From positions 1 to 62,140 of the IMG/VR virus record IMGVR_UViG_3300031851_000023: DNA of 62,140 bases. One strand, written 5' to 3'. This document shows positions 92 through 54,300 of the stretch, piece by piece. Made by a program: the position numbers and the translations under genes. The notes under the pieces were generated by a model. It had not been told where the DNA came from and ran no database searches. It saw only the letters and a list, made by a program, of their open reading frames with translations. How positions within the stretch are numbered: position 1 is the first letter of the stretch; each line of letters begins with the position of its first letter. The DNA comes from a virus. Taxonomy: Duplodnaviria; Caudoviricetes.

Positions 92-92
92 G

Positions 93-1147: not shown

Positions 1148-1180
1148 AACAATAGGGATTTACTACTTCTATTTAAGCAC

Positions 1181-1206
1181 AAAAAAAGGGACGCCGCAGC
1201 GTCCCT
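1181..1206 (-). terminator. Rho-independent terminator after gp23
   Basis: AGGGACGC-cgca-GCGTCCCT 8-bp stem followed on the minus strand by a T run. Confidence 0.9.
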
Positions 1207-1226
1207 GTGTTGATATCGTAACTATA

Positions 1227-2642: not shown

Positions 2643-2678
2643 TTGTTTGCTCTTGTTTGAAAAATGTGGGGTTTATTA

Positions 2679-12001: not shown

Positions 12002-12134
12002 GAGATTCTCTTTTATCAACTCCTAGTATATAGTAGATACTATAACCAGCCATACAAAGAGAAAGAAAAACCATAAAAATAACCGACCACACAGGATCGT
12101 TTACATTAGTATGTGGGTGTAATAATAAATTCAT
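11928..12134 (-). CDS. Hypothetical single-TM protein
   Basis: DPVWSVIFMVFLSLCMAGYSIYYILG hydrophobic segment; ATGA coupling upstream. Confidence 0.6.
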   Translation of the reverse strand: MNLLLHPHTNVNDPVWSVIFMVFLSLCMAGYSIYYILGVDKRESHGSIDTTEQEELLQLPGDGDQSCT

Positions 12135-15295: not shown

Positions 15296-16419
15296 TAGAT
15301 GCTATCCGTAAAGTTACCAAATTCACCAAATGGATTACCTTCTGTCCAATCAATAATCTCATCACCAGAATCTTCGATCTGTCTATTTTGATCGTAGTTA
15401 CTGTTCGTATTATTTAGAGTGTCAAATGTTTCTGGAGACCAGGTAGCACCTGAAGTTAGTCCAGTAATTACTTCAGCAGTAGTAAAGGTTCCTGTTCTAT
15501 TGTATACTTCCAGAGATCTGGTTGTGCTATCCCAAGACTTGACTTCTGCTCTATTGTCCTTAGGCGAGTAATCAATAGTAACAGTAGGAGCACTCGTATA
15601 ACCAGTTCCACCTGATGTAATTAGAATACTATTGACAAGACCAGTAGAACTAACTGCAGCAGTTGCTGTAGCACCTGTTCCACCTCCTCCAGTAATAGTA
15701 ACTGTTGGTGGAGTTGCTTGCTTATAATGTGATCCACCATCTGTAATAGTGATACTATCTACAGCATCACCATCAGTTGTTCCTGTTGCTTTCGCTAGGA
15801 ACTCATCACCAACAATCTCTTCTCCAACAGTAAAGTCTCCAGATCCACCAGGATCCATAAAGAGTTTGATGCTATTAGCAAATATTTCTTCCACATCATC
15901 GATCTCCTCAACTCCAGTATCAAAGTCATCACTACCGATCTCATAGATCTCAGCAGTGATAGCATAGAATTGGATCTTACCAAACTGGAAGAATGGTTCT
16001 TCCTTACCAACAAATTTAATCTCGTAGATATCTTTTGTTAGTGGGAAGTAAAGCAGATCTCCCTCGTTAGGTCTACTCTCAACAGTAATAGTAGGATTAT
16101 GATCTGCTACTTCTTCGTCCCATCTTCTAGTAGATACTCGGAAGATAATCTCATCCGTAATTCTTAAACCGAACTTGGAGATGAACTCAGCATTGTCTCC
16201 AAATCCCATGACGTTTTGAAGCAACATCTCAATTTGAAAATGTTCTTGATACTTAGAGTATCTAACCTCGTTAAGAGTGTTATCTTTTAGAGCTATTCTA
16301 GGAATGTAGTATATGTCTGTTCCGAACAGTTTAATTTGTTCGTCCACAAGATCCTGTGCGAGACCTTGCTCACCGCTGTGTCCTGAATAGTAAGTTGGAA
16401 AGTAGGGACTAGTAGGCAT
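15295..16419 (-). CDS. gp14: Neck protein
   Basis: [39 protein letters not shown] and C-terminal NPFG; carries an inserted GxGY repeat module. Confidence 0.95.
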
Positions 16420-19803: not shown

Positions 19804-22800
19804 TCATACTACAGACCACGCTCCGCCATTTACAATCGTGACAGTATTACCAGACGCAATTTCAATTGGACCAGCAGACATACAACGATCAGATGCTGTA
19901 ATTGTTATATTGTCAGTTATAGTAGATCTGTTTCTTTTGATGATTCCGTATTTGTCGATATACTGTTTATCTCCATTAATTTTTAATCCATTGGAAATTT
20001 GACCACTACTGAAGGTACCACTCTGAATATTCATAGAAGATCCAGAAACGTCAATTCTATTAGTGGCAGCTGTGCCAATTCGGAATGTTCCGTCAATTTC
20101 ACTGTTTCCAGTAGCTTTAAAAGTGCCGGAAACTTGTAAAGTGTATGTTGGATCTGCTACATTAATTCCAACCTTAGATAGTCTGTAGATGTCATTACCG
20201 TTACTGGCTTCAGTCCAACGCGAAGTAACAAACTCAGCATTATTCTGGAAGAGTTGACCATTAAAATTAACATCTCCTTGAATGTTGAGTTGATAATTTC
20301 TATTGGTTCCACTTTCTGGATCAGTTCCACTAGTTGCTGTGGTATTAATACCAACTCTATTTGAATCACCAGCAACAGTAATTGCTGGAGTTCCATTCCA
20401 AGTTGTTCCGCCATTATTGGTGGATGCTTGAATAGTAAACAAGTGGTTGCCAACTAGTTGGTTGCCAATTCTAAAGTTTCTATACGAAGAAGATCCACGG
20501 AAGACTAGAGGAGCACCAGAGTTATCATTATCAGTGTCGATAGTAACGCCTGTTTGGAACATCGCGTTACCATTAACTTCCAGAGTGTAATCTGGTTCAC
20601 GGTTGATGCCAACACCCATTTTTCTGGATGCGATAACATCACCAACAACACGGAAGTACAGTTCTGTCTCTGTGCCTTCCATAGTGAATCCTTCACCATA
20701 CTCAGATGCTGGTGATTGACTATCAGAATGATTGTATCTCAGTGTGCCAACTTGAGATTGGTTGGATGAAACATCACAGAATCTAATTTTTGCTCCAACA
20801 GCATTTGTAATAGAGCGAACAAAGATACCACCATCGCCACGAACATCTAAAGTAGATAATGGGTTGGTTCCGGCATTAATACCAACTTCATTTGATCCAG
20901 CATCAACAAACAGAGTGCCAGAATCAACATTTAAGTCGTCCGACATTGAGACGACACCTGTGAATAATGATGTTCCTGAGATGCTTAGATCAGAATTAGC
21001 GCCCGTTAGAGTTAACGGACCAGTCATGGTATCGCCTGCTTTGAGAACGTTAAGCGAAGCAGCACCAGTTAGAGCAGCAGTGATTGTTCCAGCACTAAAG
21101 TCTCCATTGGTGTCTCTAGCAACAGCTGATGTTAACGCAGCAGTTGAAACAATATTTGATGAATTGAATGCGGTATTACCAGCATTCCAAACAGTCTGAC
21201 TATTGATGCTTAAAGAATTTTCATCCCCAACTACAATATTTAATTGTCCAGATCCATCAGTTGCGTTACCACCAGATGCTTCAATTTTTGAATTGTAACT
21301 TGCCGTTAGCGTAGAAGAATTAAATAAAACTGCCGGAGCACTACTAATCCCATCAGATCTTCCTAATTTTAACTGAGCATTACCAGAATTACTTTCTAGT
21401 GTTGCTGCGACAAAATTATTTCCATCTTCAATACTAAAATCTTGGAAAAATACAGATTCATTTGCATCACCAATTTTTATAGCACCAACAAAATTACCGG
21501 TAGTAAGTCTACCAATCAATATGGTGTAATCATTGAAATTATCTCCAACATCATCATTGATAATTCTATCATCAATTTCAATAACACCAGTTGCCTGGTC
21601 ATTTGAATTGTATAGGTTAACAGCGTCTGCTCCTGGGGAATATTTTGCGTCTGTTAAAGTTTGACCAGAAACATAAATTCTATATCTTGGATCTCCAGAA
21701 TAACTCTTGATTTCAATTTGATCTCTGAAGGAAGATGCACTCTTGTAAGTTGGTAGACGGTTATCTGAAATTGTACCAGAGTTGATATTAAGAGCATTTT
21801 GATACCAAGATCCTTGCTTATTATCAAGTCTGTCAGCGTCAAGACCAGTGCCAACACCATCATTACCAGATGTCCAAACTTTTGCCCAAGTACCAAATGT
21901 ACTAACACCAGATCCAGAACCACGAAGATACATGTTATCATTATCAGTAAATGCTAATTGCTTAACACCACCATCAACTGTAAATCCTTGTCCGCCTGGT
22001 CTGAAAGTTACAATTTGTGTTTTTGATCCACCGTCATTGAGTGCTGCAGCACTATTAAATATAGTGTTGGAGACAATACCAGTAACAAATGTGTTTGGTG
22101 CTGGAGATGACACTGGGTTGTTAGTACCACTGATAACACGAATTGTATTTTGTGATTGACCAGAGATGTCAATATTGTAATTTCCTGCCAATCTATCTGA
22201 TAGTAGAGTGCCAGCATTAAGATTGCCAGCATTTAGATAGTAAGCACCTTGAGCACCATCTAACAAGTCAGCGTCTAGACCGCTATCTGGACCGGTCTTA
22301 AGTTCAACCGAACCATTACCTCCTTGTCCAATATTAAATTGACTTTTCTTATATCTAGAAACTCCAATTGTTCCATATAGATCAGCAGAAATTGTTAGAT
22401 CAGAAACTCTCGCAATATCAAGTGATATATTTGCGTATTGTCTGTTGATAGTACTTACTTTACAATCAAGAACTAAACCAGATCCAGAACCAATTTCAGT
22501 TGGTGGGACCGTAATGCTAAAGTCAGCATTAAAGTTAACACCACCATCTGTTACCACAACTGAAGTAACTTCGTTATTTACAACAGTAATGTTTGCTGCC
22601 AATCCAGTTCCAGATCCACCAAATAATGGAACATCAAAGAATTGTCCATTGCTAAATCCTGACCCTGGCGCTGCGATAATAATAGATTCAACAAATTGAC
22701 CTTGTGTGTATGTTGATTCAAATGTAATTGGAGACTCACCCCTTAGAAACTCAATAATAGTTCCTGCGGGAATAATATCAGTAACTGGATTATCAATAGC

Positions 22801-25800
22801 AACTGTTGTCAATCCACCAGTTGTAATAACACCCGTAATATTAGTATTTGCGGGGATGCCAAGAATATTGTCAACTACTTCATGACCAATTAAAGTATTT
22901 GAATTGGTTGTAAATATAAGCGAATTTGTTCCAACACTAGCTTGAGAATATAGACTAGCAAAATATCTATTTTCTGCACCTTTTAATGACTGAACTGTTA
23001 AAGCATATGACTGATCACCACGTAAGAAGGTGAAAGAGTTTGCTGCGTTTGCACCTAGTAAAGATGTTGAGATAAGTTCATTTGGACCACTGGAGACCAA
23101 AGTGTTAACACTAACTGCTTCACTGCTTAGTGATACCCAGTTGGCGATATCAAATGAAGACGTATTAACAGTTCTTGTAAGGTTAACTGTATTTGTAGAT
23201 GGAGATGTGCTATCTTGAATAGTATCAGTATCTTCAATTTTGATTCTATTAACAATATCTCCGTATAATCTACTCTCCAATAGAGCACTACCCTGTGCTT
23301 GTATTCCTCCACCAGGAGGTGCATCAAATGTGATTGTTGGTTGTGTAGTATAACCTTTACCACCCAATAGTCCATTGAATAATGTAATAGTTACAGTAAC
23401 AACTTCGCCATTTGCTATAGTGCAATCAGCTTCAGCAGCAATAGCACCAGCAGATGGATTACCACCTGATATTACTATATTTGGTGCTGTTACATATCCA
23501 GAACCGCTATTTGTAATATTGATTCTGTAAATTACACCTTCTCTATATTCCGTTGATTGTAGTCTTCCATTAGAAACGCTACCAGTAAATACATCTCCAA
23601 TAGTAAAACTTAATGCTGGATCTGGATTAAATCCTAGGAATAAAGTATCGTTATCTTCATTCAAAATGAATGATGTGGATGTGTCTTGCTGAATCGCAAT
23701 ATCACCGGCAAGTGCTCCTTCGATAGATGTTCTTCCAGCAACATCTGGTACTGTGTAAACACTGAATGGACGCAAAGCAGGAATCTGATCAATAGAAATT
23801 TTTCCACTATCAGTAAGTTCTACTAGAGCTCTGGGGACAGCATTAGTAGAGTATGGTTTGTTGATATAAGGTCCGAGATTATTGGTAATAAAATCTTTAA
23901 CTGCTTTTTGAGTTGGGATCTTACTATCAGAAGCACTAGCACCACCAAGTGTGTTGGATGCGTCAAAACCGGTGACAACAACGTCACCACCTTTCAGTTT
24001 TAGGAACTCGACTTCTGAAATTGTAACTGTACCGGTAAAGGTAATATTACCAGTTCTGTTTTCAATCTTAGCAAACGTGCCAACTTTAAAGTCACCAAGT
24101 TCGTCAGTACCCGAAACATAAACACGACCATAATTTTGAGATACCTGCTCACTAGATTCATCCTTAGTGCCACCATTTTCTGGTAATGCATTATAGTTAG
24201 TGCCCGATCCAGCATATTCCCAAGTGTGAGAAGATGAGTTAACAATAGATGGTCTATGCAATCTAATTGTTTTTCCAGTCAGTACGGAATTTGATACTGC
24301 TTGATTGTTTGAAATATCAATCAAACTCATTGCCTGTCCGGTACCATCATCAATTGTTAATTGACCTCCAGAACCATCAACGGTAACAGCGGCAATACTA
24401 TCGATAAAATATTCAATATCTGGATTTGAATTTTTATATCCATCAATTTTAACAATATAATGCTCAAGTGGTTCTCTTCCTAAACCAGCAACAGTCAGAA
24501 TAGTTCTGCCAGTTGGTGTTGCGGACACATTGGATACCGTTGCGATATCAAACTCATATGCATCCTTTCTAAATCCTATAGCTCTTAACGCATATTGTCC
24601 AAAGTTAGTAGCAGAGTTGGTAATTGAACAATAACCACCAGACTCAGCAATAACACCATCACTACAGAAAATAACAAAGACAGAAACTAACTGGGTGTAA
24701 CCATCGTTAACAACTCTATAACCAGTACCACCAAAAGAAACAATCGTGAATGCCGCAGCAACCATTGATTTACCCTGATTCGGGAATGTTGCCGATCCAT
24801 CTAAGTTTAGACCAGGGAATGGTGAGTTGGGTTGCTTTACTTTATTACCATCAACTTCGGCACCGCCACCACCTAGGAAGGAGATAACAGAAGCGTTCTG
24901 AGTATATGGTGATGCTTCAATAATAGGATAGTCATCGTAGTCAGCACGAACTGCCATCCTATTATTATTTTGATCATAGATAAAACTATCTGGGTATGTT
25001 CTTATTTCTGCAGTATTGAACAGAGTGCCATACGTTTGTGTGGTTGCTCCTGGTAAAACAACACCACCTAAAATATCATCCAACAATTGCATTTCGGTGT
25101 CAATTGTTGAAGAAACATTAGCACACAAAGGATTGCTTGAATATGGTAGAATATCCCAGTCTTCAAATGTTGGAATATTAACAGACGGTACTACCGGATC
25201 AAAGATTAAAATTGTTCCATCAGTAAGAGCACTTACAAATGAATGTGCTCCTGTGTAAGAAGAAGAACCTACATTACATGTAATAGTAGTAAGACCACCG
25301 CCAGTAGAAACATTGGTAATTGCGTGACTTTTCCCACGATTTTTATCTGTTGGTGATGGACTTGCGTGATCTCCACCGCTGTTAAATGCACAGTTAAATG
25401 TTAACGCACCTTGCTTAAATGCAATTCTGTCATTGGTTGTTGGATTGCCAACAGAACCACTAATAGAAACAGTTACCTCACCCGTTGATGCGTTATAAGT
25501 TGCTGTTGTTGGTGTTGATTGAATGATAGTTCCATCAGACCAGTTACGCATTGCTTTCTTAGCAAGTTCAGCAACTTGGGTATACGCATACCTAGTAGAT
25601 GGCAACTGAGAAGCATCAACACCAACTAATACAGATCCACTAAAATATGTTTCGGCATTTGATACAATACCAGCATTTCCACCAAGAACCAAATCCCTAA
25701 CAAGACCACCAAGAATGTAATTGATATCTCTTCTACACTTTCTTTGATGTAGATCAGAAAGACCTAATGTTGGGAAGTTAGTTTCTGTATTAGTAAGTGC

Positions 25801-28800
25801 TTGCTCGGCAATTAAATCTCTGTTTCTAGCAATTAAGTATGCTGCGTCTAGATATGTTCCAGAAGCATCATTTCCGATCACATCAACATAAAGATATGCT
25901 AAAGTATCGATTGCTGATCTTACATCATCACATGCAGGACTACCAGCAGTTGCTGTAATTACCGTGTCGTCAAAATATCTTTCTGACGATGTAAACTCTG
26001 GGACGTATATTGGACTGGATTGTGTTCTGTCACCAGTTCTCCAATTACACATTGCAAAGATTGCTAGTTCGCGAGCATATTCAATCGCACGAACTGTTTG
26101 AATAATTTCATTTTCAATATAAGCAATTTTTGCGCCAACTACATATCTATCTGCTGCTTCAATAATATTATGATTTGATCCAAATTCTAAATCTCGTGTT
26201 AGAGCATTTAAGAAGTGGATAACATCTTGCTTACATTGAACGTCACCATTACTTCCAGAATTTGTTGACGTTGGAGCACTGTATGCTGGATAAATTTTCT
26301 GTCCAGCTTCACATTCAATTAGCAAATCTGCTAGTCTTACAATATCATCATTTGCTAGAGTTAATGGTTGGTCAGTTGTTACTACAGCAACACCAGTATT
26401 TGAAGTGTCGTATACAAAATTAGTAACGTTAGCTACAGCACCAGTAGATGAAGTTACAGTACCGCCACTAACCCAAGTATTTACATGATCTAATGTTCCG
26501 AGATATATGCTGAAAGAACTACCACCAACAGATAGAGAATTTGATTCAGATCTTACAAACGTGTGAACAGACTGTGGTAGATGTTTTACTGCATTGGATG
26601 CTGAACCAGAAAAACTATGTATTGATTGTGGTTCATGTTTGATAGCATTTGCTGATGCACTTATAAAAGTATGAGCAGAAGTGTCGGAAGAAGTTCCAAC
26701 GTTGATTGTAAACGTTCCATCTTGGTGGTCAATGCCATTGGCAAGCGCACTGACGAAGGTGTGAGTACCAGTGTAAGAAGAAGATCCTACATTAATATCA
26801 AATGTGTTGGTAGTTACATTGCTGATTTCTAACCAGCGACCTGATGGGTAATCATATCCAGCACGAGGATATGATTTTTGAGCAACATTACCATCTAGAT
26901 CACAAGTGTATGTTAATGTGCCATCATCAATTTTAACATAATCACCGTTAGTAAATCCATGGTTTGAAACAGTTAGTGTTACTACACCAGTTGCTGCGTC
27001 ATATGGAGCATCAGTTGCTGTATGCTGAGTAGAACCTACAGCAGAAATAGCAATAGACTTACCAGCAAATGGATCTTGTCCAGGACGTGGGTATGTGCTT
27101 TGAAGTACGTTTCCATCTAGAGCACATGTAAACGTAAATGAGTTGTCAGCAAGAACAACGCTACGCCCGACCCCAAGACCATGCTGTCCAACAGTGACTG
27201 TCATATCACCTGTTACTGGATTATAATTAGCACCAGTTGGTGTGAAATACTTATTGGGACCTGAAATGCCAGCATTAATGGTGATAGTATTTTCAGCAAC
27301 TGCTGTGATAGGCATAGACCTACCAGCAAAAGGATCAATACCAGGACGTGGATAAGTCTTAACTGACTGATTTCCATCCATGTCACATGTGAAGGACAAC
27401 GAATTGTCGTCAATAATAATACCTTCACCAACAGATAATGTATGTGGTCCGACTGTTAAAACAAGACTTCCTGTTGCTGGATCATAATTTGCACCAGAGG
27501 GTGTAAACTGCTGATCTGGACCAGAAGCACCAACGTTTACAGTAAATGTGTTTGTATCAGATGCAGTGATAGGTAAAGATCTTCCGCTAGCAAATTGATC
27601 CGTATCAGGTAATGCGTGTTCTGTTTGATTGCCATCCATCGCACATGTAAATGTGATAGACTGATCAGCAATCCTGATACCATTTCCTACAGATAATCCA
27701 TGGTTATTTACTGTGAATACAGTATCTCCTGTAGCAGGATTATAAGTTACATTTGTTGGTGTAAATTGAGCAGTTGCTTGTCCGCCAATATCATATACGG
27801 AATAGTAATCTCTTTTGAATTGATCATTAATTTTTCCTACTACTTCATCGGCAATAAATTCTCTGTTGTTGCGGATGAATGTAACAGCATCTTGATACCT
27901 TCTTTCGACAGGCGTTGCGGTTGCGAATGTGTTTGGTGAGTTGAGGAGCGATAATGTAACACTTCTCGTGAAAGTTTTTGCAACTGCTGTTTGTCCTGGT
28001 TGAATATTATTGTCAACGATAGCAGGAAATTTTTTGGGAATTACAAATCTTCTAGCACGACCATCAGCATCTTCTAGAACTTTATAAATTCTCTGTTTAC
28101 CGTTCAATGCAGATAGATCTGGATTGGAAGTTGGCATTCCAGAGATTACAATTTCCTCACCTTCTTTTAATTCGTGAGTATTGCTTCTACCTACAAGTTC
28201 GCTTGTGTAGAAGACAACACCACCAATATCTTCAGAATTTCCAAATGTTTCAAATTGGAAACCGTTTTGTGTAATAGATGGATCTCCTTGCTTCGAGAAA
28301 TCTAATCTAATAATAGGATACGAAGCTTCAAAATCTTCGTTGACTGATACAACTTCGCCTTCAGCTCTAATTGAAATTAGTGAAGTAGAATTGAAAGTTT
28401 CAATTTGTGGTGTTGCTTGGTTAATATTAACACTAATCGCAGCAGTGCTATTCCATTCAGGAGCTCCTAGTATACCAAAAAATCTAATATCCCAATAAGT
28501 TGGAGTATCAATATCATCTGGTGTAATTGAAGCAATTTGATAATAACCTTGCGTAAAGACAGCATCGTTAGTATCATCCACGAACACATATGTGCCAGCT
28601 GGAATTATAGATGACGGATCTGAAGTAGATCTGAGTTTGTTCTCTCCAGAAGCAGCAGTAATAGTTAATCCACTAATTGCCGCACCAGTTCCAGCAGATG
28701 TGATATAGGAAAATTGTTCGCCTTGAACAAAAGAACCACTTTTTAGTTCTACATCAGCTGATCCAGAAATATATGCGCTAGCGCCAGTTGTTTCCTCAAA

Positions 28801-30228
28801 CCTAACGTCAATAATATTTGCTCTTGAACCAGTATTTAAACCAACTACATCCAATCCATTAGCAAGAGTTGATAATCCTGTGTTACCAGTAAAATCAACA
28901 CGGAATTGATCTGGACCAAAAACTTGATGACCAATTGGAAACTTTACACCAATATCACCATTTACTTCTTTATCGACAAGAATTCTTTGCTTGTCGTCAA
29001 AGACCATAGCATAATCCCAAGTAGCAACAGCATCGCCATTAGCATCAATTTTGTCTCTATAAGTAACACCAGTGACATAGTTTTTATCACCGAACTTAAA
29101 GATGTGTTTGCCAGGATTGTTTGGTCTTATAATAACCAAACGAAGGTTATCACCAACAACCGATGCGTCTGGTGGTAGTGAGATGGGATTGTCTTCTACA
29201 TAATCACCACCAGAAACAATTAACGTTTCTTTGACACCAGGAGTAGACCATGCAATTTGTGCTGCCTTCTTAATGGTTCTAACAGGAGCAACAGCAGAAC
29301 GACCATCATTTAGATCGGAACCAATTTGTTCTGAAACATAAACACGACCACCAACGTCATTTGTTGCTAGGTTAAGTACATATTCAGTAGTAGCAATTTT
29401 GTCGGATCTATCTCCTAGAAGAGGAGTAATAGAACGAGGATATACACCTGCGTCTCCGGTATCATTATATCTAAATTCTTCTTCATTAATTACACGAAAA
29501 CCAACATGCTTGAAGTTAACTTCGCCATTTGCAACAATACCATCAACATGCTCTGGACCGCTAGGTCCAGTTTCTCCAGCATTTAGTGCCTGATAAACAT
29601 TTGAACCAAAATATCTAAATGAATTTTCCTGAAGAATAATATTTGGTGCCCATAAAGTACCAGTATTATTTTGATATGTTTTTAAGTTGGGCGCTCTAAA
29701 ATTTGTATCTGGAGTGATAAAGTTGTCAATATCTAGGTTTAGAATTCTCGCCGTATCTGAAATGATAGACGTGGAAGTTCTAATAGCACCATTAATATCA
29801 AGTTCAAAGTCAACGGTATCAAGTGCGGATGTTGCTGCAGCACCAGAACCATTACCACCACTAATAACAACTTGAGGAGCAGTACTATAACCACTACCTG
29901 GGTTATTAACTGCAATGTTAATAACACGACCGTTGAAAATAAAGGCAGATGCTAAAGCTTGTGTGCCACCTTCGGGGGGTGCTGTGAGTTCTACTAATGG
30001 TGCGGCGGTATACCCAGAACCGGACTCGGTAATTGTGATAGTATTAACTCTTTGTCCAGTTCTGTTAATACCAACACGAGGTAAATCCGTTTCGGAATCT
30101 AGTTGAGTTCTTAAAATTTCTTTTTCAGATGATCCAGTACCACCTCTAATAGTGAGTTCATTATCACCAATAAGTTTTGGATTAACGCCTCTAATTTTTT
30201 CTTTATCTGAATTGATATGAAAACTCAT
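19804..30228 (-). CDS. Giant tail fibre/spike-like virion protein (3474 aa)
   Basis: GxGY repeats, beta-helix entry motif (YVS..GSD.NDG.S..P.RTIKKA...GDNLR), GLDADLLDG fibre motifs, GIN...P...L.V.G repeats, C-terminal SAGPI...W.VV; late promoter at 30261-30268. Confidence 0.85.
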   Translation of the reverse strand: MSFHINSDKEKIRGVNPKLIGDNELTIRGGTGSSEKEILRTQLDSETDLPRVGINRTGQRVNTITITESGSGYTAAPLVELTAPPEGGTQALASAFIFNGRVINIAVNNPGSGYSTAPQVVISGGNGSGAAATSALDTVDFELDINGAIRTSTSIISDTARILNLDIDNFITPDTNFRAPNLKTYQNNTGTLWAPNIILQENSFRYFGSNVYQALNAGETGPSGPEHVDGIVANGEVNFKHVGFRVINEEEFRYNDTGDAGVYPRSITPLLGDRSDKIATTEYVLNLATNDVGGRVYVSEQIGSDLNDGRSAVAPVRTIKKAAQIAWSTPGVKETLIVSGGDYVEDNPISLPPDASVVGDNLRLVIIRPNNPGKHIFKFGDKNYVTGVTYRDKIDANGDAVATWDYAMVFDDKQRILVDKEVNGDIGVKFPIGHQVFGPDQFRVDFTGNTGLSTLANGLDVVGLNTGSRANIIDVRFEETTGASAYISGSADVELKSGSFVQGEQFSYITSAGTGAAISGLTITAASGENKLRSTSDPSSIIPAGTYVFVDDTNDAVFTQGYYQIASITPDDIDTPTYWDIRFFGILGAPEWNSTAAISVNINQATPQIETFNSTSLISIRAEGEVVSVNEDFEASYPIIRLDFSKQGDPSITQNGFQFETFGNSEDIGGVVFYTSELVGRSNTHELKEGEEIVISGMPTSNPDLSALNGKQRIYKVLEDADGRARRFVIPKKFPAIVDNNIQPGQTAVAKTFTRSVTLSLLNSPNTFATATPVERRYQDAVTFIRNNREFIADEVVGKINDQFKRDYYSVYDIGGQATAQFTPTNVTYNPATGDTVFTVNNHGLSVGNGIRIADQSITFTCAMDGNQTEHALPDTDQFASGRSLPITASDTNTFTVNVGASGPDQQFTPSGANYDPATGSLVLTVGPHTLSVGEGIIIDDNSLSFTCDMDGNQSVKTYPRPGIDPFAGRSMPITAVAENTITINAGISGPNKYFTPTGANYNPVTGDMTVTVGQHGLGVGRSVVLADNSFTFTCALDGNVLQSTYPRPGQDPFAGKSIAISAVGSTQHTATDAPYDAATGVVTLTVSNHGFTNGDYVKIDDGTLTYTCDLDGNVAQKSYPRAGYDYPSGRWLEISNVTTNTFDINVGSSSYTGTHTFVSALANGIDHQDGTFTINVGTSSDTSAHTFISASANAIKHEPQSIHSFSGSASNAVKHLPQSVHTFVRSESNSLSVGGSSFSIYLGTLDHVNTWVSGGTVTSSTGAVANVTNFVYDTSNTGVAVVTTDQPLTLANDDIVRLADLLIECEAGQKIYPAYSAPTSTNSGSNGDVQCKQDVIHFLNALTRDLEFGSNHNIIEAADRYVVGAKIAYIENEIIQTVRAIEYARELAIFAMCNWRTGDRTQSSPIYVPEFTSSERYFDDTVITATAGSPACDDVRSAIDTLAYLYVDVIGNDASGTYLDAAYLIARNRDLIAEQALTNTETNFPTLGLSDLHQRKCRRDINYILGGLVRDLVLGGNAGIVSNAETYFSGSVLVGVDASQLPSTRYAYTQVAELAKKAMRNWSDGTIIQSTPTTATYNASTGEVTVSISGSVGNPTTNDRIAFKQGALTFNCAFNSGGDHASPSPTDKNRGKSHAITNVSTGGGLTTITCNVGSSSYTGAHSFVSALTDGTILIFDPVVPSVNIPTFEDWDILPYSSNPLCANVSSTIDTEMQLLDDILGGVVLPGATTQTYGTLFNTAEIRTYPDSFIYDQNNNRMAVRADYDDYPIIEASPYTQNASVISFLGGGGAEVDGNKVKQPNSPFPGLNLDGSATFPNQGKSMVAAAFTIVSFGGTGYRVVNDGYTQLVSVFVIFCSDGVIAESGGYCSITNSATNFGQYALRAIGFRKDAYEFDIATVSNVSATPTGRTILTVAGLGREPLEHYIVKIDGYKNSNPDIEYFIDSIAAVTVDGSGGQLTIDDGTGQAMSLIDISNNQAVSNSVLTGKTIRLHRPSIVNSSSHTWEYAGSGTNYNALPENGGTKDESSEQVSQNYGRVYVSGTDELGDFKVGTFAKIENRTGNITFTGTVTISEVEFLKLKGGDVVVTGFDASNTLGGASASDSKIPTQKAVKDFITNNLGPYINKPYSTNAVPRALVELTDSGKISIDQIPALRPFSVYTVPDVAGRTSIEGALAGDIAIQQDTSTSFILNEDNDTLFLGFNPDPALSFTIGDVFTGSVSNGRLQSTEYREGVIYRINITNSGSGYVTAPNIVISGGNPSAGAIAAEADCTIANGEVVTVTITLFNGLLGGKGYTTQPTITFDAPPGGGIQAQGSALLESRLYGDIVNRIKIEDTDTIQDSTSPSTNTVNLTRTVNTSSFDIANWVSLSSEAVSVNTLVSSGPNELISTSLLGANAANSFTFLRGDQSYALTVQSLKGAENRYFASLYSQASVGTNSLIFTTNSNTLIGHEVVDNILGIPANTNITGVITTGGLTTVAIDNPVTDIIPAGTIIEFLRGESPITFESTYTQGQFVESIIIAAPGSGFSNGQFFDVPLFGGSGTGLAANITVVNNEVTSVVVTDGGVNFNADFSITVPPTEIGSGSGLVLDCKVSTINRQYANISLDIARVSDLTISADLYGTIGVSRYKKSQFNIGQGGNGSVELKTGPDSGLDADLLDGAQGAYYLNAGNLNAGTLLSDRLAGNYNIDISGQSQNTIRVISGTNNPVSSPAPNTFVTGIVSNTIFNSAAALNDGGSKTQIVTFRPGGQGFTVDGGVKQLAFTDNDNMYLRGSGSGVSTFGTWAKVWTSGNDGVGTGLDADRLDNKQGSWYQNALNINSGTISDNRLPTYKSASSFRDQIEIKSYSGDPRYRIYVSGQTLTDAKYSPGADAVNLYNSNDQATGVIEIDDRIINDDVGDNFNDYTILIGRLTTGNFVGAIKIGDANESVFFQDFSIEDGNNFVAATLESNSGNAQLKLGRSDGISSAPAVLFNSSTLTASYNSKIEASGGNATDGSGQLNIVVGDENSLSINSQTVWNAGNTAFNSSNIVSTAALTSAVARDTNGDFSAGTITAALTGAASLNVLKAGDTMTGPLTLTGANSDLSISGTSLFTGVVSMSDDLNVDSGTLFVDAGSNEVGINAGTNPLSTLDVRGDGGIFVRSITNAVGAKIRFCDVSSNQSQVGTLRYNHSDSQSPASEYGEGFTMEGTETELYFRVVGDVIASRKMGVGINREPDYTLEVNGNAMFQTGVTIDTDNDNSGAPLVFRGSSSYRNFRIGNQLVGNHLFTIQASTNNGGTTWNGTPAITVAGDSNRVGINTTATSGTDPESGTNRNYQLNIQGDVNFNGQLFQNNAEFVTSRWTEASNGNDIYRLSKVGINVADPTYTLQVSGTFKATGNSEIDGTFRIGTAATNRIDVSGSSMNIQSGTFSSGQISNGLKINGDKQYIDKYGIIKRNRSTITDNITITASDRCMSAGPIEIASGNTVTIVNGGAWSVV

Positions 30229-45343: not shown

Positions 45344-45369
45344 TATTTATATTTATACCGTTATTTATG
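45344..45369 (-). promoter_or_regulatory. Three tandem late promoters upstream of gp8
   Basis: TATAAATA at 45344-45351 and 45350-45357; CATAAATA at 45362-45369. Confidence 0.75.
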
Positions 45370-48300
45370 AAATTGTAAACGGAACCAATTCTTCAGCAGA
45401 ATTGATTGAATTTGGTCCACTATAGAGAGTACAACCATCAAATTGGGTTTCTGTTTTACTTGTGTATTGGATTACAGTTCCTCCACTAGTAAACAAATAT
45501 CCATTATTCGGGAAGTATGTTGTATCTTGTACAACAATTGAACCACCAATAGTTCCATTAGAAGAACTAATAGCAACTGGGTTTTGAATTGATGGAGGCA
45601 TTAGAGTAAACTTATCGCCCACTAAAGTATAACTAGAATTTCCGCGTTCGGCAAAATCGTTTACTGTCAATGATGGATAATAACTAGTCAATTCTAAGAT
45701 ACTTAAACTAGAAACATTACATGCTCCATCATCAAATAAACCATCAAAATGTTTAATTGTGTGACCAAGATTTGTTTTTGTGTAGTTACCTACATATCCC
45801 GTATCTTCTCCAAATGTCCTGTTTGATATTAAGATCTCTGTGGTATTTCGCTGTGTAACATAATATCTACCATTGATATCAATTAAATCAACTTCCCCAA
45901 TTCTTGTTTTAATTGGATCAACGACAAAAACACTTTCCTCGTATCCATCGACTGCTCCACTTGGAGGAGTGATGAGTAATACCTGCAACTCTTGCTTGGT
46001 TATATCAAGTTCTGATTGAACAGTTTGAATTGTATTTTTGAAGTTTGTTTGTCTGACTGATGTAGTAAATGACTGAATATTACTAGATGGTGTTTCTAGT
46101 TTGTAATTTACAACGGTTTCTACACTCGAAATAGATGCGACATTAAATTGTGGTTGAATATTCGCAATTGATTGTCTAGAAACTTTCTGAACTTTAACTG
46201 TTGGTGTTATAATTTGTTTTTGTGATTGACCTGCGGCAAACACTTTAGCACCAGCATTAATTGTAACCAGACTGGATTCAGACTCAACAACAGTGATACC
46301 ACCATATGTCAAGGATACTGGATCTGGAATCTGTCGTAAGAATGTTCCAGCAATCCACTCTTGAGCAGTAGTATTCTCTTGACCTCTTTCTACATTTAAG
46401 AAACGATCATTAATCTTGCGGAAATATCGAACAATTTCTGTTCCAATAAGAAGATATCCATTGGTTTTAAATTTATCTGTATTACCAACATAAATGACGG
46501 TATCATTAATAGTTAATGTAGTATCTAAGAACGCACCAACTTCAAAATAATTGATGTTAGTAAGAGCAGTGTTGTTTATAACATTAGCAATACTAGAAGT
46601 TATTTCTCTTGCTGCTGATGTTGTCAGTGTGGAAGAAGAATCAATACCAACAATGTATGGAGTACTAATACGAACATTAATTACTGTTCCACCATGGAAT
46701 GTGTCAACTGGTGCTGCTTGCTGCTCTGTATGGAAAGTAGTTAATACTTCATCAAGTTTTGCAGATAGATCTTCACTGACAGTTTCTTCAGCAGGAGTAA
46801 TTATATCAATTAATTTGGTATCAATTATCAGAGGACTGTCAACTAAGGTTGAAGTAATAGCTTGAACACTTGCTGCCTGATTACTAATAACATCAATACT
46901 GGTAAAGATTACGCTCAGTCCTAAAGACTGCTCTAAATTCATTCTGGCATTGATTAGAGAAACTCCAATATCAGTTTCTTCTAGAACATCATAACGTCTG
47001 GCAACAACAACTTTTGGTGCTTTTGTATATCCAGACCCACCTTCGATTAGTTCTACACTAATAACCTGACCTTTACTGACAAGGACCTGTGCCCTGGCTC
47101 CACCGCCTTCTCCATTTTCAGGAATAAAATTAATTACTGGCGGAGTATAATATTGATAAGCAGTCGGTTGTGTGATGGGATCATAACTACGTTGATTCCA
47201 ATCCAAATCTACAACAACACCATTTTCAATTTTAGCAACAATACTAAGACCTTCGCCTCTTGTTATTCCATTATATGCTTGAACTTCAACTTGACCAAAA
47301 TAACTATTTGATACTTGCTGTTGACTTCTTTGTTCCTTACTTGTTAGTTTTGATGGGAGTTCTTTAATTTTTCTGAACTTATCTTCACCCTCAACTTTTA
47401 TTAGACTATTGTTTGAAAGACTTATAAATGGATTTTTATATACTTTTCTCCAATAAGTACCACGCCAGTTTTGATCTATTCCTCTAAGAACAGATCTGCC
47501 ATCATTATCAGTTTCATATACAATTGAAGAACCAGATGAATTTAATCCAACAATGGTATTAATTTCATACTTTCTTGCTATAGAGAAATATACATCTCTT
47601 CCCTGAATTAAATCACACTTATAACCAAACACTTTTAAACTTAGAGTTGATCCAGAAACTGTTGGATCACTAACTTGTCCAATTACATTATATGTTCCAT
47701 CATCGTTAATTTGATAGGCATGAATTGGAGATCCTCTTCTAATACCCATCCATCTATTTCCTAAGAAATCGGAAAGACCTGACGTAATTTCTAAATTAAT
47801 AACACCATTTAAGTAATATAGATCTGTATTGAAATCAAACAAATTCAGAACTTGTCCAACATCTCTACCATAAAGGTATCTCATGTCAACTTTCATCTGT
47901 TCTGTAATTGGAAATTTGAAGAATATATTGGGACCAGATACTGTATACGAATCAATGTTTTTCTGGAGAACCCCATCAATAAACACTAATAAGTAATCTG
48001 GTTCTTCAACATTAACAACTGTAAGATCTTCTAAATCAAGAATTAAGAATGGTCCTGTTCGGACATTATTAACCAAATTCTTATCTAGAGTCATTCTCTT
48101 ATAATTTCCAACCCCAATACCAACAACTTTCTCAACAGCTGTTGCTTCCCCTAATGTTCTGGCACCAGCATATTGATCCCAAATAGGAGCAATATCAAAT
48201 TTAAGTTTGTTTGGAATTACTGTTCTATCGATATAATATGAATCATCTCCTGGATAATTTGCATTATACTTAGTCTCTTGTAATACAGCATTAATTGATA

Positions 48301-51300
48301 GTAATAGATTCTCATCTTGTTCTGTAACAACAGAACTTCCATCTTCCCAATATAATTCAAACTCTTTGGTTTCGCCGTCAATATAATCAGGAAGAGTTTT
48401 AGTAACTTCTAATTTGTTTAAAACATCGTCTAGGTTATTGTAAAGAGAATTAACAGATGAAATTACATCATTACATTCTTGTGATGGAAGTAATGGATCT
48501 GGCAATATATTATAGTTTGAATATGTAAGAGTAGCAGACCAATATCCAGGTTTGTTTGAATTGATGTTCACAATTTCTACTACACCTGTTCCTTTAGCAA
48601 TGATATCTTTTACGATATCAATCATAGTAGTAATTGTAGATTCAACATCGGCACATACAGGGAATTCTGAGTCTGCAAATACTGTATTATCTGCGTAGGG
48701 AGCAATACTAGTAAAAGTTCCACTTGTCAATGTATTCCGCATTGCCAGTATCATGAGATCTCTTAACCTCTCCCATGCTGCAACTGCGGCGGTAACTTCT
48801 AATCCAGTCAGATAAGTTAATTCTTCTCCATATGGATATCCGCGATTTGTGTAGTATAGTTGAGCAAATTCAACAATTTTAGCATTTCCACCAAATCTTA
48901 AGTGATAAACAATATCATCAATTAAAAATCCTAGATCTCTAGCACACTTTGCTTTGTCTGATACAGGTAGAGCATAGTTAGCATATACAAATTCACTTAC
49001 CTCTTCCTGTAAATATTCTTTGTTGTTGGCAATTAGGGTTGAAGCATCATAGTAAGTTCCATTATTAATTCCACTGAAGAAGAAAGTTGCGCTATCAGTA
49101 GAAGCAAATGATAAAGGTACTTGTAAAATATCATTTGGATTTACTGAATAATCATCACCTGGTTGAACAGCACCAATACTAGATCCTAAAACTTCACTTC
49201 CAGAAGAAGATCCACTAAGGAAAGTGGTAGATGAAGATGCTCCACCGGCACCACCAGAGTTTGCTAGTGCTGGTTTTGATAAAGTTACTTGTGTTATGCT
49301 ATCAATAGAAACAACAATTGTATCTGGACTATATGCTCTACCTGCACTAATCGTCATGCCGATAGCAATATTATTGGTATTGCTAACTGTGACTTCTTTA
49401 GAACCTTGAATGAAAACTACAGACTCTTCAACATAATCCCAATTTCGGATTGCCAAATTTGCTAGATTTGTAGCATATTTGAAAATTGATAAAGATTCTG
49501 CTGAATTGTTCTTGATATACTCTGAACTGGTAGCAAAAATATTTGCATAGTCTACGAGTTTGCTGTTTCCACCAAATCGAATATCATGTTGGTAGGCATC
49601 AAGAATGTAACCAATATCAATGGTATAATCATCTAATTTTGTACTCCAATCCAATGAACTGTAGTATTGCTTACCATAACCAATTGATTCCTCAATAATA
49701 AATTTCTTATTTCTATCAATTTGATTGGCAGCATCAATCCATGTTCCACTGCGCTGGAAAATATTTCTTAATTTTCTAAGATAACGAGTATTATACTGAC
49801 TATCCTTAAAGTAGAAATTTCTTCCAACAAATTTTGTTCCTTTGTATTGAGATGTATCACCAACATTATTTCCTGTTAATTTATTTCCAGGACCTAAAGG
49901 AGGTGCGCTAAAAATAATATTATCTCCACTTACAGTATATGCAACTCCTGGTTCTTGTAAAATACCATCAAGAGTAACAATCAAACTTTCTACATTAACT
50001 GGAGTAAATGGTACTCCTGTATCGTCTAGTACCTGGAAAGATGTTGTTCCTTGTAACCTACCATCTGTATCAAAATACCCATCAAATGGAGCACTAAGAG
50101 TGAATGAGAAAGCACGAGTTTCATTAAAATTAAATTCTGAGGTAGCAGCAGAACCTTGACCATTACGTATTCTTGTGTTTTTAACAGTTTGAATAGTTTG
50201 AGTTGTTACTTGCTTTGTGCTTTCAACAGTAATCTTATTTTTATTTGGATCCCATAGTTGAATAATTGAGAAAGTGTCTGCCTTTTTTTCACCAGCAACT
50301 GGCATTTCAGATTGAGCAGTTGTTTCAATGTCAACTTGCCCAAATAATTTAAATCCAGCAGGGTGTGTGGTGGATTTGATTAAATCTCTCCACTGTTCAA
50401 TAGAAGTTTTTGATTTGACAACGTAAGAGTAGTCTTGGTAAAAGAAACTATCAGTTAATTTTTGATTTGCTGCTCCAAGTCTTCCTTTATCTGAAGTATA
50501 GTAACCTAAGTTATCATACGAACCTTTAGTTGTTGTGCTGAATGTTGTAATAAATGCTTTCTTGACTATGCCAGAAGCACCAGATATGTAACCATCTACA
50601 GAAACATTTTCTCTAATAATACCAACAACTTTTTCAATTTTGATTAAATTTGATCCTTGTCTGTATTCAGAAACTATTGCTCTAGAAACTTCAACTCCAT
50701 CAATTGTTTGAGTTAAAATTTCTCCTTTCTGATACACTCCATTGAAATTTTTCAATGCCAAAGTATACTTTGAAGTTACTGCTGATGATACAGTTTTATC
50801 TAAATGATAACCAGCTCCATTGTTTATGATCCTCACACTTTGAGGAATTCCAATACTTTCACTTTCAGCATACAAACTTACTGCAGATTCAATAATTATA
50901 ATCTCAGGAGCATATGTGTAACCAACACCGGGATTTTTAACGGTAATTGAGAATAACTTACCATCACGTTGAATTACGTTAAAATCCGCACCGGTTCCAT
51001 CAGAATTTGTAATAATAACTTTAGGATTTACGTAATTTGATCCAACGATATCGATATTGACACCAGTAATAATATTAGTAAATGTATCAAATAAAACTGT
51101 TGCCGATCCTCTATATGGTTCTGAAGGATCGCAACCTAAAATCAATGGAACTTTTTTGTAGTTTTGTCCTAAATTTATTACCTTAACACTGTTGATTTCA
51201 CCAATAGCAAATTGACCACTAGTGGTATATGAAACAGATCCAGAACCATCCCAAAGAGGAGTACTTAAAACATCGTATACAAAACGATTTCTTGTAACAT

Positions 51301-54300
51301 AGTTAAGTGTCTTTGTTCCTTGTAACGGATCATTGATAACTTGTAAATATGCTCCCTCTGAATTTACAATATTATTTTTGTCAAAATAATAGAAATTAAG
51401 GAAATCTGTTCCTACTTTAGTATCATAGTTATTTTGCTCTAAAGCAGGACCAAATCCAAATTTAACTGTTGTTGATGACCCAGAATTACCAGGTAAAATT
51501 GTAGTAGCAAGTTTTTCTGTAGTTAATAAATTATAACTCTTACTTGGACTCATATCAAAATATGTTCCAATCAGAGAAGAATGTGAAGTATCAAATACGT
51601 AATTATAAAACTCTTGTATATTAATATTTGGATTTGGTGTAAATGTAGTATTGTCTTCAGAAAATTCAAATTTAAAATCAATATCTCCAACAGAAACAAT
51701 AGATATTAATCTTTGCTGACTGCTTTCATCAAAAAACGATGTGCTTAATGTTATTGCTTCTGCTTCTCTCTTGTCAATACTATAATCAAATACAATAGTA
51801 GCATTCTGAGTATCTAAATCATAAGATTGAATATACCCACTGCCATTAGCAGAAGTAATTTTAAAATTATTTGAAAAATTATATCTTGGTTTGTATAAAG
51901 AAAGAGACGCTTTATTATAATGATCTACCGCAGTAGTTCCTTCTCTAGATCGAATTACTGTTAATGTATTATTATTGATAGCAGAAATTTCTACGATCTC
52001 AGATCCAATGCTTACTAAATCTCCTGTGGCAAATCCTTTTGAGGTTTTAACTTCAATGGTAGTGGAGTTAAATGAGACACCTGCATGATCAACATATAAT
52101 GCTAATCTAGAAGAACTTAAAGATGCTCCTGATCTTTGTAGTTGATCATCATCTACACCAAGATAATCTCCTCTTTGGTAATCAACACCACCATTTGTAA
52201 TAGTGATACTATTAACGACTCCAGCATCAGATACTATAATGTCCGCAATAGCACCAGAACCAGAACCTCCTGTAATTGGAATATCGGTATATGTTCCTGC
52301 TGTATAATCTGCTCCACCATTTAAATTGGTAAATCTTCCAATACCATTAAAATTAATTGTTGTTGTATTGGACGGTGGTGTAAATGTTACTTGCTGATAT
52401 AATCTTTTTCTGATATAATATGTTTTAGTTTTGGTAGCATCATCTGGAAATATGTTAATATCAACAGAGTCTCCAATTGCTAATCCATGATCTTCTGTAG
52501 TTTCTATTAAGACAACACTTTGATTTACTTCAAATGGTTCTAAGTTATCACTCAAAGAAACTAATGTAACAATTTTAGATCCAGATGTGTTGAAAAGATT
52601 ATCTGACTGAAGGTAGTAATTGTCATCAACAATCCACACACCAGACAATACTTTGATGGTAACTGTATTCTGCCTACTAGTTCCTTCTAAAATTTCGGCA
52701 GTAGCAATAGGTGCGTTGACACCATCAGTTAAACTTAATATAGCACCTTTCGTGTAATTGCTATCTTGGTCTATAGTAAGAATAAAAGTTTTGATATCAG
52801 CAGAAAAAGTTCCGGTGTTATTAAAAGTTCCTATAACATTTTTAAGTACAATCAAGTTATCGTTGGTAACAGTTCCTACGATTGAACCAGATGCTCCACT
52901 TGCCGGTTGTCTTAATGTATCATCTACAAACAAGAAAGCATTTTGAATAGTTGTTAATTTTACAACTTTGTCTTCTTTACTTTGTAAGTAATTAACTCCT
53001 TTTCCTTTAACAGATGATACTAATGCATTAACATCTCTTCCCTCGGTTCCAATATTATTAAAGTATAGTTGTGAATTAACAGAGAAATTACTAGAAGAAT
53101 TGTCAATAACGACGTTATCTACAGTTCCTGATCGTACTTCGGAAATAGTAGCTACTAATCCATCACCATTACCCAACATTCCAGGAGTAAAAAATCTTTT
53201 AGCATCTTTGGGAATATCGTTTTGATTAATTTTAGTAGTGTAATTACTATCTACTGGTAGAGAATAGAATTTGTCTCCTAAAACATATGGAAACTGTGGT
53301 ACTTGACTACTATTAATAGTAATAAAATAAGCATATGTTCCATCAGGAAAATCTGGAGTGATGCAAAAACGACCGTTGTTCTCATCCAAAGATCCACTTT
53401 TATGAGAATAAACATAGTCATTGATAAAGGATCCTAATGGATACTCTACCGGTGAAGGTCCATCTTGCCTACTTCCAGACAAAGAATAACTAGAAGTCAT
53501 TCTTACAATTGGAGAAATTTGATCTAGTGGATTCTCGTATCCAAATGGACCATAGATTGGGTTGCCATCATAAGCAAATCCCAAAATGGGAGAATGTGTT
53601 TTGTTTGTTGGTTCTGTATCTGCAGAATTTAAATTGTCGTTTAATTGAATTCTGAGTGCTTTTGGGTTAGCAACTTGACCATATCCATATTCAAGAACAT
53701 TGTTTATGTTTTCAAATACATAACCATATTGTTTGTCTAAATTTGATTCTAAACTGACATAACGATTTTTATTCCACTCTTTTAACAATGGTGTTACTTC
53801 AGCACCAGATCCAACAGAAACAATTTCTACTTGAATATTTTGTTGAGTATATAATGAACCACCAGCAATTTTAGTAAATTCTACAATAGATCCGTCCCTA
53901 TCAATTACTGTATTATATTCGGCAAATCTTCCTTTGCCAACACGATCAGTAATTCTTACAATAGGTGGTGTGGAATAAAATTTGCCAGGATTTTCAACGA
54001 TTATACTAGTTACTTCTCCACCGGTTACAACTGCTCTAGCAACACCGTCTCTTCCAGAAGTAATCTCTACTTCAGGAGTAACTGGGAATGTGATGTCAGT
54101 ATCAACAATGATACTATCAACAACTCTACCAACCATCTGTGCCCTTGCTCTTCCGGCAAGACCATCAACTACAACAAATGGAGGATTTACATATCCACGT
54201 CCTCTATTATCTACACGAATTTCTTCCAGTTTTCCAAAACGTAGACTTTCAGAATCTTTATATCCATAAATGGGAACACCATTTAATAAGATACCAACAT

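Follow-up and report, generated by a model that had tools for sequence, protein, structure and literature searches.

The described systems that come closest to the domains considered here are the bilin-binding globins of cyanobacterial antennae and their relatives. Phycobiliprotein subunits such as CpcA and CpeA (family PF00502) are free proteins of 160-185 residues that form discs. ApcE, also a part of the cellular antenna, carries one phycobiliprotein-type domain (4xxi) within a large multidomain protein, and this bilin domain has an insertion in one of its loops and needs no lyase for attachment of the bilin. The globin-coupled sensors and RsbR-type globins are related in general fold and illustrate the use of globins as sensors, but they hold heme or no cofactor. 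Cys-x-Arg-Asp (CXRD), which these sensors lack, is the chromophore motif of the phycobiliproteins and occurs as well in some of the bilin biosynthesis-associated globins (BBAGs), distant phycobiliprotein paralogues of non-photosynthetic bacteria; these are small, self-assembling biliproteins of unknown function that attach the bilin by themselves and are encoded in clusters with heme oxygenase and reductase genes (PMC10151467). Here we describe four modules, designated A to D, that very probably belong to this broad group and that lie within two giant virion proteins encoded on IMGVR_UViG_3300031851_000023, a 62-kb viral fragment with an estimated completeness of 33%, the whole of which (62,140 nucleotides) is referred to below as the window.

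Both giant proteins are encoded on the minus strand, as are all the long open reading frames of the window. The modules within them were located with a deep profile of 1289 module instances, nearly all from other proteins, which was run on every open frame of at least 60 residues. Exactly four modules are found, two in the protein designated P0001 and two in P0002, every other frame of the window scoring E >1, and the detection is far above chance. Copies B (P0001 residues 1461-1563), C (P0002 residues 2042-2140) and D (P0002 residues 2271-2376) are matched at E 4.9e-25, 2.9e-22 and 2.5e-25, respectively. Copy A is matched in two pieces, with residues 1325-1396 of P0001 on profile positions 30-102 (E 3.3e-17) and the detached first helices, residues 780-807, on positions 1-28 (E 0.0069). 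The two genes and the parts of the modules are listed here with the evidence for each.

19804..30228, minus strand: P0001, a tail-fiber-like virion protein of 3474 residues bearing modules A and B (open reading frame, translation, phrog_5342)
27793..27897, minus strand: first helices of module A, residues 778-812 (deep profile)
26257..27792, minus strand: insertion within module A, residues 813-1324 (sequence reading; phrog_1276 match)
25864..26256, minus strand: helices E to H of module A, residues 1325-1455 (motif, profile, model)
25531..25863, minus strand: helices A to G of module B, residues 1456-1566 (phmmer, deep profile, structure match)
25147..25530, minus strand: predicted beta-barrel domain in the G-H loop of module B, residues 1567-1694 (model strands at positions 243-350)
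25057..25146, minus strand: closing helix H of module B with Cys1702, residues 1695-1724 (motif; model helix 375-395)
45365..55858, minus strand: P0002, a gp7-like baseplate wedge/virion structural protein of 3497 residues bearing modules C and D (open reading frame, PHROG)
49436..49753, minus strand: helices A to G of module C, residues 2036-2141, with the degenerate motif Tyr-Thr-Ile-Asp (DYTID) (deep profile)
48587..49063, minus strand: module D, residues 2266-2424, contiguous (phmmer, AlphaFold, VIA, Foldseek)
48407..48481, minus strand: probable closing helix of module C with Cys2462, residues 2460-2484 (C..V.S.V motif)

The eight short strings that the original prediction had read in the 3474-residue protein, together with Cys1332, Cys1433, Cys1498 and Cys1702, are all present in the P0001 translation. 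It had also proposed sequence patterns common to four copies. The profile does find all four, but copy C reads Tyr-Thr-Ile-Asp and not Cys-x-Arg/Gln-Asp. In a six-frame motif scan of the window, the pattern C..D...G[GS]N occurs three times, twice in P0001 and once in P0002, and patterns of the type C..V.S.I.T occur four times in P0001 and P0002 and once elsewhere. The count of four copies in total is right for the 62-kb fragment but not for a complete IMG/VR genome of 191,983 bp that shows 97% identity at copy D, in which ten stretches are matched in three giant proteins.

The sequence evidence for phycobiliprotein ancestry comes principally from searches of 177,635 PDB sequences, in which matches were reported up to E 10. 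With copy D as the phmmer query, 32 of 33 matches are to phycocyanin alpha, the best at E 0.0025 and aligned on KAKCARD, and the remaining match is an alpha-amylase at E 0.24. The region spanning copies A and B gives three matches, all of them alpha subunits, at E 0.088-0.91; in the best of these, module B aligns with residues 37-103 of phycocyanin alpha, with Cys1498-Arg-Arg-Asp on Cys84-Ala-Arg-Asp. The same alignment sets the NFP of copy B on the KFP of phycocyanin alpha, which bears out the aromatic-proline pair that had been noted at the end of helix B. In both copies B and D, the helix-E Lys-Cys-x-Arg-Asp is found in register with the Cys84-Arg86-Asp87 bilin site. A profile of the four copies has phycobiliproteins or proteins derived from them as 32 of its 35 matches (best E 0.013). 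When the profile is extended to 26 sequences (copy D, 22 IMG/VR orthologues and copies B, A and C), all 45 matches are phycobiliproteins, the best at E 5.8e-4 over alpha residues 34-104, such that a profile built from the copies does retrieve this family, as the original prediction had anticipated.

A comparison of alignment with alignment gives the same result. With hhalign, 287 full-length module instances were set against four phycocyanins, two alpha and two beta, from plasmid pREB3 of Acaryochloris marina, giving a probability of 94.9-95.6% and P values of 1.3e-8 to 4.1e-8 over up to 93 columns, with module positions 2-100 on phycobiliprotein positions 38-142. The alpha sequences alone give a probability of 93.7% and the beta sequences alone 62.8% (P 7e-5). 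Control alignments, one reversed and 20 with shuffled columns, give P values of 0.015 to 0.69. Word-based homologue searches recover metagenomic fragments and long cyanophage proteins only, with no phycobiliprotein among them; one match is named "structural protein, Synechococcus phage S-B43", and the short module relatives are fragments from short contigs. In the ESM Atlas nothing usable is matched.

Structure prediction leads to the same family. Copy D was modeled with AlphaFold2, without templates, from an alignment of 26 rows that is free of phycobiliproteins, and the model has six helices with a mean local confidence (pLDDT) of 85.3 and a predicted TM-score (pTM) of 0.84. The 50 PDB matches listed by Foldseek are all phycobiliproteins, with TM-scores of 0.52-0.68. 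In an independent comparison with each of 48,161 representative chains by VIA-align, the top eight are again phycobiliproteins. The best of these, phycoerythrin beta (5aqd_M), has Z 16.0 and a root-mean-square deviation (rmsd) of 2.3 Å over 147 of 169 residues, with model positions 1-160 on chain positions 26-184, and is followed by a far-red allophycocyanin (Z 13.6) and the bilin domain of ApcE (Z 13.5). Globins other than phycobiliproteins, which are heme globin sensors, reach Z 12.2 or less. A second model, of P0001 residues 1326-1725, was built from 15 sequences, also without phycobiliproteins (pLDDT 75.3). Copies A and B share the same helix order in this model, and the helix pattern of copy A matches that of copy D; copy A was modeled minus its first helices, and its fold is barely probed by the structure search. 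For copy B (model positions 130-400), the top eight chains are phycobiliproteins at Z 12.7-16.2, including ApcE (Z 13.8, rmsd 2.4 Å) and 8imk_G (Z 13.4, rmsd 2.2 Å), and the alignments extend to model residue 396-400, into helix H. Across phycoerythrin beta, allophycocyanin and ApcE, the superpositions have Z 12-16 and rmsd 2.2-2.6 Å, and the models point to a phycobiliprotein fold rather than the unrelated helical bundle that the original prediction had set against it.

The likeness differs in kind from one relative to the next. CpcA and CpeA are the best sequence relatives, with helices A, B and E in register: the K-C-x-R-D-[IV]-G-Y of the modules falls on Lys83-Cys84-x-Arg86-Asp87-Ile-Gly-Tyr, their GGN on the GGT at residues 102-104, and the aromatic-proline pair ends helix B in both. 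The modules nevertheless share only 13-22% identity with these subunits, have no Pfam match and no X-Y hairpin, and are internal domains, with beta inserts, of virion proteins of about 3400 residues. Phycoerythrin beta (5aqd chain M) is the best structural match, and has in common with the modules a long G-H loop and a cysteine directly ahead of helix H. The second module cysteine immediately precedes helix H in the manner of beta-subunit Cys153/155, and the Acaryochloris beta sequences show a spacing around this site similar to the C-x-x-[LV]-x-S-x-[IV] of the modules; in sequence the modules nonetheless resemble beta subunits weakly, and the correspondence of the second cysteines is putative. 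ApcE (rmsd 2.3-2.4 Å) parallels the modules in its setting within a large protein, but has one such domain where the phage virion proteins have from 2 to more than 20. The globin-coupled sensor and RsbR-type globins score lower, at Z 9-12, and give no sequence signal. As phycobiliprotein-like globins with CXRD or CXQD, the modules correspond to the description of bilin-binding globins in the wide sense, the C-x-Q-D of copy A being the CXQD of photoglobin (PMC10151467). The BBAGs, which are likened to the modules by their description only, differ in that the phage relatives have neither heme oxygenase nor reductase genes and adjoin a lyase gene. Taken with the searches and models, these comparisons make it highly probable that the modules are remote homologues of phycobiliproteins with the same fold, and they may be described as truncated phycobiliprotein-type globin domains, with predicted helices A to H and without the X-Y hairpin, in virion proteins of a T4-like cyanomyovirus.

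Within this common plan, loops accept inserted beta domains, in the B-E loop of copy A and the G-H loop of copy B. In module A, an insertion of about 510 residues parts the first helices from the remainder; it consists of tandem beta-rich units of about 87 residues, each with a conserved FTC..DGN cysteine, and its length differs among orthologues. The remainder holds Cys1332-Lys-Gln-Asp (QCKQD, in which Gln replaces Arg), a GSN motif and Cys1433 immediately ahead of the last helix. Module B carries the motifs NFP, Lys-Cys1498-Arg-Arg-Asp (KCRRD) and GGN, and its insert of about 130 residues resembles beta-barrel domains of the tails of phages N4, Sf11 and FCWL1 (VIA Z about 7). This domain is missing from three orthologues (L098, L160 and L161), in the last of which the corresponding A-B region has only 415 residues, with about 95 inserted in copy A and none in copy B. 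Since such compact forms occur naturally, the insertions are optional. The beta-rich unit of about 87 residues, which also has a YPR..DP..G stretch, is present about four times in tandem in module A and once in module B; the loop that holds it differs between the two, and orthologues have from none to many. Module D is uninterrupted, with Lys-Cys2305-Ala-Arg-Asp (KCARD, as in phycocyanin alpha) and with Cys2402 ahead of helix H. Module C is without a last helix of its own and a C..V.S.V helix follows module D, so that module D is probably nested inside module C.

The residues that hold the chromophore in phycobiliproteins are the most constant feature of the family. Across 1546 instances in 176 proteins (hmmsearch), the C-x-R-D motif has Cys in 96%, Arg in 94% and Asp in 99%, percentages that are somewhat inflated, and so tell less for bilin binding, in that C, R and D are part of the very profile with which the hits were selected. 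Other conserved columns are Asp57 (96%), Tyr73 (96%) and the Asn of GGN (82%), and typical core positions are conserved at 40-70%. The second cysteine is present in 51% of the 373 instances that reach its column. In P0001, the four cysteines at 1332, 1433, 1498 and 1702 are invariant in 15 of 15 orthologues. Both proteins are poor in cysteine, with 18 in the 3474 residues of P0001 and nine in the 3497 of P0002, three of the latter at module positions.

The modules belong to a large family. In a HMMER search of 1.84 billion cluster representatives, the four-copy profile finds 1210 proteins at E up to 1e-3 and 803 at E up to 1e-10. The best matches are giant proteins of up to 6982 residues with up to 35 matched stretches, and in 176 proteins searched with hmmsearch the modules form regular arrays with a period of 100-140 residues, many units of which are without the last helix. 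The original prediction of a mobile virion module is consistent with these 1210 clusters and with tandem arrays in many different giant tail proteins. Among named hits, the family is found only in cyanophages. When copy D is compared by tblastn with 50,697 phage records, 255 match, of which 254 are named Synechococcus phage, Cyanophage or Prochlorococcus phage and one "Marine". In BFVD, every match that has a name (E up to 1e-3) comes from a Synechococcus phage and is labeled a "tail", "structural" or "tail fiber-like" protein. With an array protein of 2910 residues as the query, most matches are again to cyanophage tail proteins, and those to the small number of other phages are confined to its ends. 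IMG/VR holds 371 relatives. The clusters of ten giant array proteins carry no informative names, and a search of 185,579 prokaryote species genomes with one peptide pattern found none, which, given how narrow the pattern is, is weak evidence of absence.

A bilin lyase gene, cpeT, is a regular neighbor of the family. No cpeT is found in the window, and it is present in all four near-complete relatives. In the 97%-identical genome (G001), outside the window, it ends 290 nucleotides ahead of another giant gene, the third to bear modules, which runs on the same strand and holds about six of them.

L172 3515-4039: cpeT
L172 4329-16502, same strand as cpeT: giant gene encoding 4057 residues

A survey covered 80 IMG/VR loci with cpeT homologues of 42-100% identity, loci too short on a given side being left uncounted on that side. 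Modules lie downstream of cpeT on the same strand, starting 0.8-4.1 kb after it, in 47 of the 47 loci with at least 5 kb downstream, although these are related, syntenic genomes and not independent events, which lessens what they can say for bilin binding. Upstream, modules are found in none of the 60 loci with at least 5 kb on that side. In S-PM2, cpeT lies between gp5 and the gene for a "short tail fiber protein" of 3779 residues with four C-x-[RD]-D modules, with three small genes intervening. It has been speculated that cpeT in phages raises fitness through enhanced light harvesting (PMC10452541). Two side observations concern these loci. In the S-PM2 record (NC_006820, 165928-177267), 16 tRNA features stand inside the "short tail fiber protein" coding sequence under the same locus tag, which looks like misplaced annotation rather than biology. 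In another IMG/VR record (G004, that of L036), module matches at about 85.7-86.6 kb are interrupted by in-frame TAG stops, two or one to a match; the open frames are short, the cpeT-adjacent gene being split into frames of 693 and 967 residues, and a decayed gene, assembly errors or stop-codon reassignment could be responsible.

The adsorption of several cyanomyoviruses, including S-PM2, requires light (PMC2984593, PMC7112961), and darkness prevents the adsorption of P-HM2 but not that of the podovirus P-SSP7 (PMC7112961). Ten module stretches are matched in S-PM2, six in P-HM2 and none in P-SSP7, a contrast between myoviruses and podovirus that amounts to three phages and is confounded by morphology, which counts against resting a photoreceptor upon it.

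Of the functions that the modules might have, covalent attachment of a bilin is the likeliest single one, with a probability that we place at about 0.5, because the CXRD chromophore motif is near-invariant, the family is restricted to phages whose hosts are rich in bilins, and a bilin lyase gene is a conserved neighbor. The original prediction had likewise named bilin binding as a possibility. While particles assemble in the infected cyanobacterium, the helix-E cysteine would form a thioether with a bilin, which could be phycoerythrobilin, phycourobilin or phycocyanobilin, and the Arg and Asp of the motif would hold the propionate and the pyrrole nitrogens. Attachment might be autocatalytic or be mediated by host lyases, and a second bilin may be placed on the cysteine ahead of helix H by the phage's own T-type lyase, CpeT. 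More speculatively, the pigment may stabilize the domain, or may be what senses light when cyanomyoviruses adsorb in a light-dependent manner. The furthest extension, which we consider doubtful, is that cyanomyovirus particles are themselves biliproteins, that cpeT serves to pigment the phage tail and not the host antenna, and that the pigmented modules form a virion photoreceptor that gates fiber deployment; this would explain why phages of the S-PM2 and P-HM2 types adsorb only in the light.

Several results weigh against modules that are bilin-binding relatives of the phycobiliproteins, some of them touching ancestry and others function. As regards ancestry, PF00502 (cut-off 22.2 bits) is unmatched at E up to 10 on the whole protein, on sub-regions and in the six frames of the window, the same model finding nine genes on the Acaryochloris plasmid, and a profile search of 5.8 billion proteins returns no phycobiliprotein at E up to 10. 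The best Foldseek E-value is 1.5e-3, with none at or below 1e-3. The N-terminal hairpin is absent, structural alignments beginning at phycobiliprotein residues 26-50 and sequence alignments at 34-38; this hairpin we take to be the X-Y helices through which alpha and beta subunits pair. The sequence signal does not extend beyond helices A to G. On their own, the C-terminal 44 residues of copy D find no match among the PDB sequences, and for this reason the equivalence of the second cysteine is without sequence support of its own, its assignment to beta Cys153/155 drawing on a low-confidence global alignment and on helix position. All this might be taken to mean that there is no common ancestry, and that an unrelated helical bundle shares a short C-x-R-D by chance and was modeled by an AlphaFold biased toward a learned fold. 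The marginal E-values from single sequences and small profiles (0.0025 to 0.088), the silence of Pfam and the frequency with which helical models reach Z of about 13 through arrangement alone would fit such a coincidence. It becomes highly improbable when set against 45 profile matches out of 45 to one family, free of noise to E 10; an hhalign P of 4e-8 across 93 columns, against at least 0.015 in all 21 controls; the Z of 16.0 at 2.3 Å over 147 of 169 residues, against 12.2 at most for globins that are not phycobiliproteins; and the agreement of two separate models from phycobiliprotein-free alignments.

As regards function, the more serious competitor to bilin binding is a pigment-free exaptation, in which a captured ancient phycobiliprotein or bilin-globin domain became a helical spacer or oligomerization unit, and the Cys, Arg and Asp serve packing or subunit contacts. 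The tandem arrays look like the building blocks of a rod, with up to 35 stretches at a period of 100-140 residues in proteins of up to 6982 residues, and a rod with tens of bilins would be of no obvious use; many array units lack the last helix, large domains are tolerated in the loops, and the hairpin of alpha-beta pairing is missing. Some modules have lost the Cys (copy C) or the Arg (copy A, and several P-HM2 modules that read C-x-D-D), and colored cyanophage particles are unreported in the literature searched. The four near-complete relatives encode no heme oxygenase, no ferredoxin-dependent bilin reductase and no S-type lyase CpeS, and a link between the modules and phage bilin-synthesis genes was accordingly rejected. 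In eight further genomes, a CpeT-family gene is divergent (20-40 bits), non-adjacent or absent (S-SSM6b, P-SSM2), and seven of the eight still have 3-6 modules. In the eighth, P-SSM2, the whole record (AY939844.2) yields neither a module (E up to 1e-3) nor a gene of the CpeT family; this phage presumably carries bilin synthesis genes and, if so, these and the modules do not co-occur there. What makes exaptation possible but less likely than bilin binding is that the residues that hold the chromophore (PMC10151467) are the most conserved columns, at 94-99% against 40-70% for typical core positions, that a lone conserved cysteine is unusual in a cysteine-poor extracellular protein, and that the conserved cpeT neighborhood would be left unexplained. 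A different ligand or chemistry, such as heme or another tetrapyrrole, a metal shared by subunits, a thiol that responds to redox state or a cross-link by which each chain would harden the fiber, would draw on the closeness of the fold to heme-binding globin-coupled sensors (Z 11-12) and on the conserved Asp57, Tyr73 and Asn63, to which no role is assigned. We think it improbable, given that the nearest structures and the sole sequence matches are bilin-binding globins, that the CXRD bilin motif is in exact register across 20 residues of helix E, and that the conserved columns include no proximal histidine. A disulfide joining the two cysteines of a module was also considered and judged unlikely, their positions being far apart in the phycobiliprotein fold as known from phycocyanin structures.

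The setting of the modules is that of a virion. PHROG profiles recognize in the window the structural block of a T4-like cyanomyovirus, including the major head protein, scaffold, portal, sheath and terminase, and the window encodes further proteins of 2705 and 1433 residues. P0002 is matched end to end by phrog_4406 and also by phrog_2885, "baseplate wedge subunit", and its gene is flanked by gp6-like and gp8-like genes. P0001 residues 1-3474 align with positions 1-3319 of phrog_5342 (E 0, 5350.8 bits), the name of which, "tail fiber protein", is the annotation label of the library and thus a predicted function. No Pfam family is matched by P0001, either as the whole protein or as four sub-regions, and a sub-threshold match to ESM4 was taken as chance. 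Downstream of P0001 are a small tail-fiber-like gene and then a tail assembly chaperone (PF16778). The remaining features are the following.

55864-57660, minus strand: gp6-like gene (PHROG profiles)
15295-16419, minus strand: neck protein with a short domain of the head closure Hc2/baseplate wedge type (PHROG), found also at P0001 residues 53-145 and at several places in P0002

This short domain, of the PHROGs "head closure Hc2" and "baseplate wedge" (phrog_460, phrog_438), thus recurs in three virion proteins and may be a second shuffled virion module. Directly upstream of the gp6-like gene, a 219-residue open reading frame (58261-58920, minus strand) matches phrog_3704, "ferredoxin", an auxiliary metabolic label, at E 7e-115; the label is doubtful, there being no Pfam match whatever. 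The open reading frame at 11540-12019 (minus strand) encodes a staphylococcal-nuclease homologue (PF00565, E 9e-11). That at 93-674 (minus strand) has a weak, sub-threshold match to a 2-oxoglutarate-Fe(II) oxygenase, and in S-PM2 a gene for such an oxygenase likewise lies between cpeT and the giant tail gene.

No published description of a phycobiliprotein-like domain in cyanophage virion proteins was found in the openly accessible titles, abstracts and text passages searched, and what PMC10151467 says there on bilin-binding globins makes no mention of virion proteins. The presence of modules with an intact chromophore motif in baseplate and fibers, near cpeT, offers one testable answer to two open questions about cyanophages, namely why cyanomyoviruses carry a bilin lyase gene and how the adsorption of virus particles depends on light (PMC2984593, PMC7112961). 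Even without a pigment, the modules provide a named domain for hundreds of giant cyanophage proteins now called "hypothetical", and would clearly illustrate how phage tails can take over an antenna fold of the host as a building block. A bound pigment would make this the first virion to carry a light-absorbing cofactor; the modules would then add a new lineage to the bilin-binding globins and offer a natural collection of small biliprotein domains that tolerate insertions.

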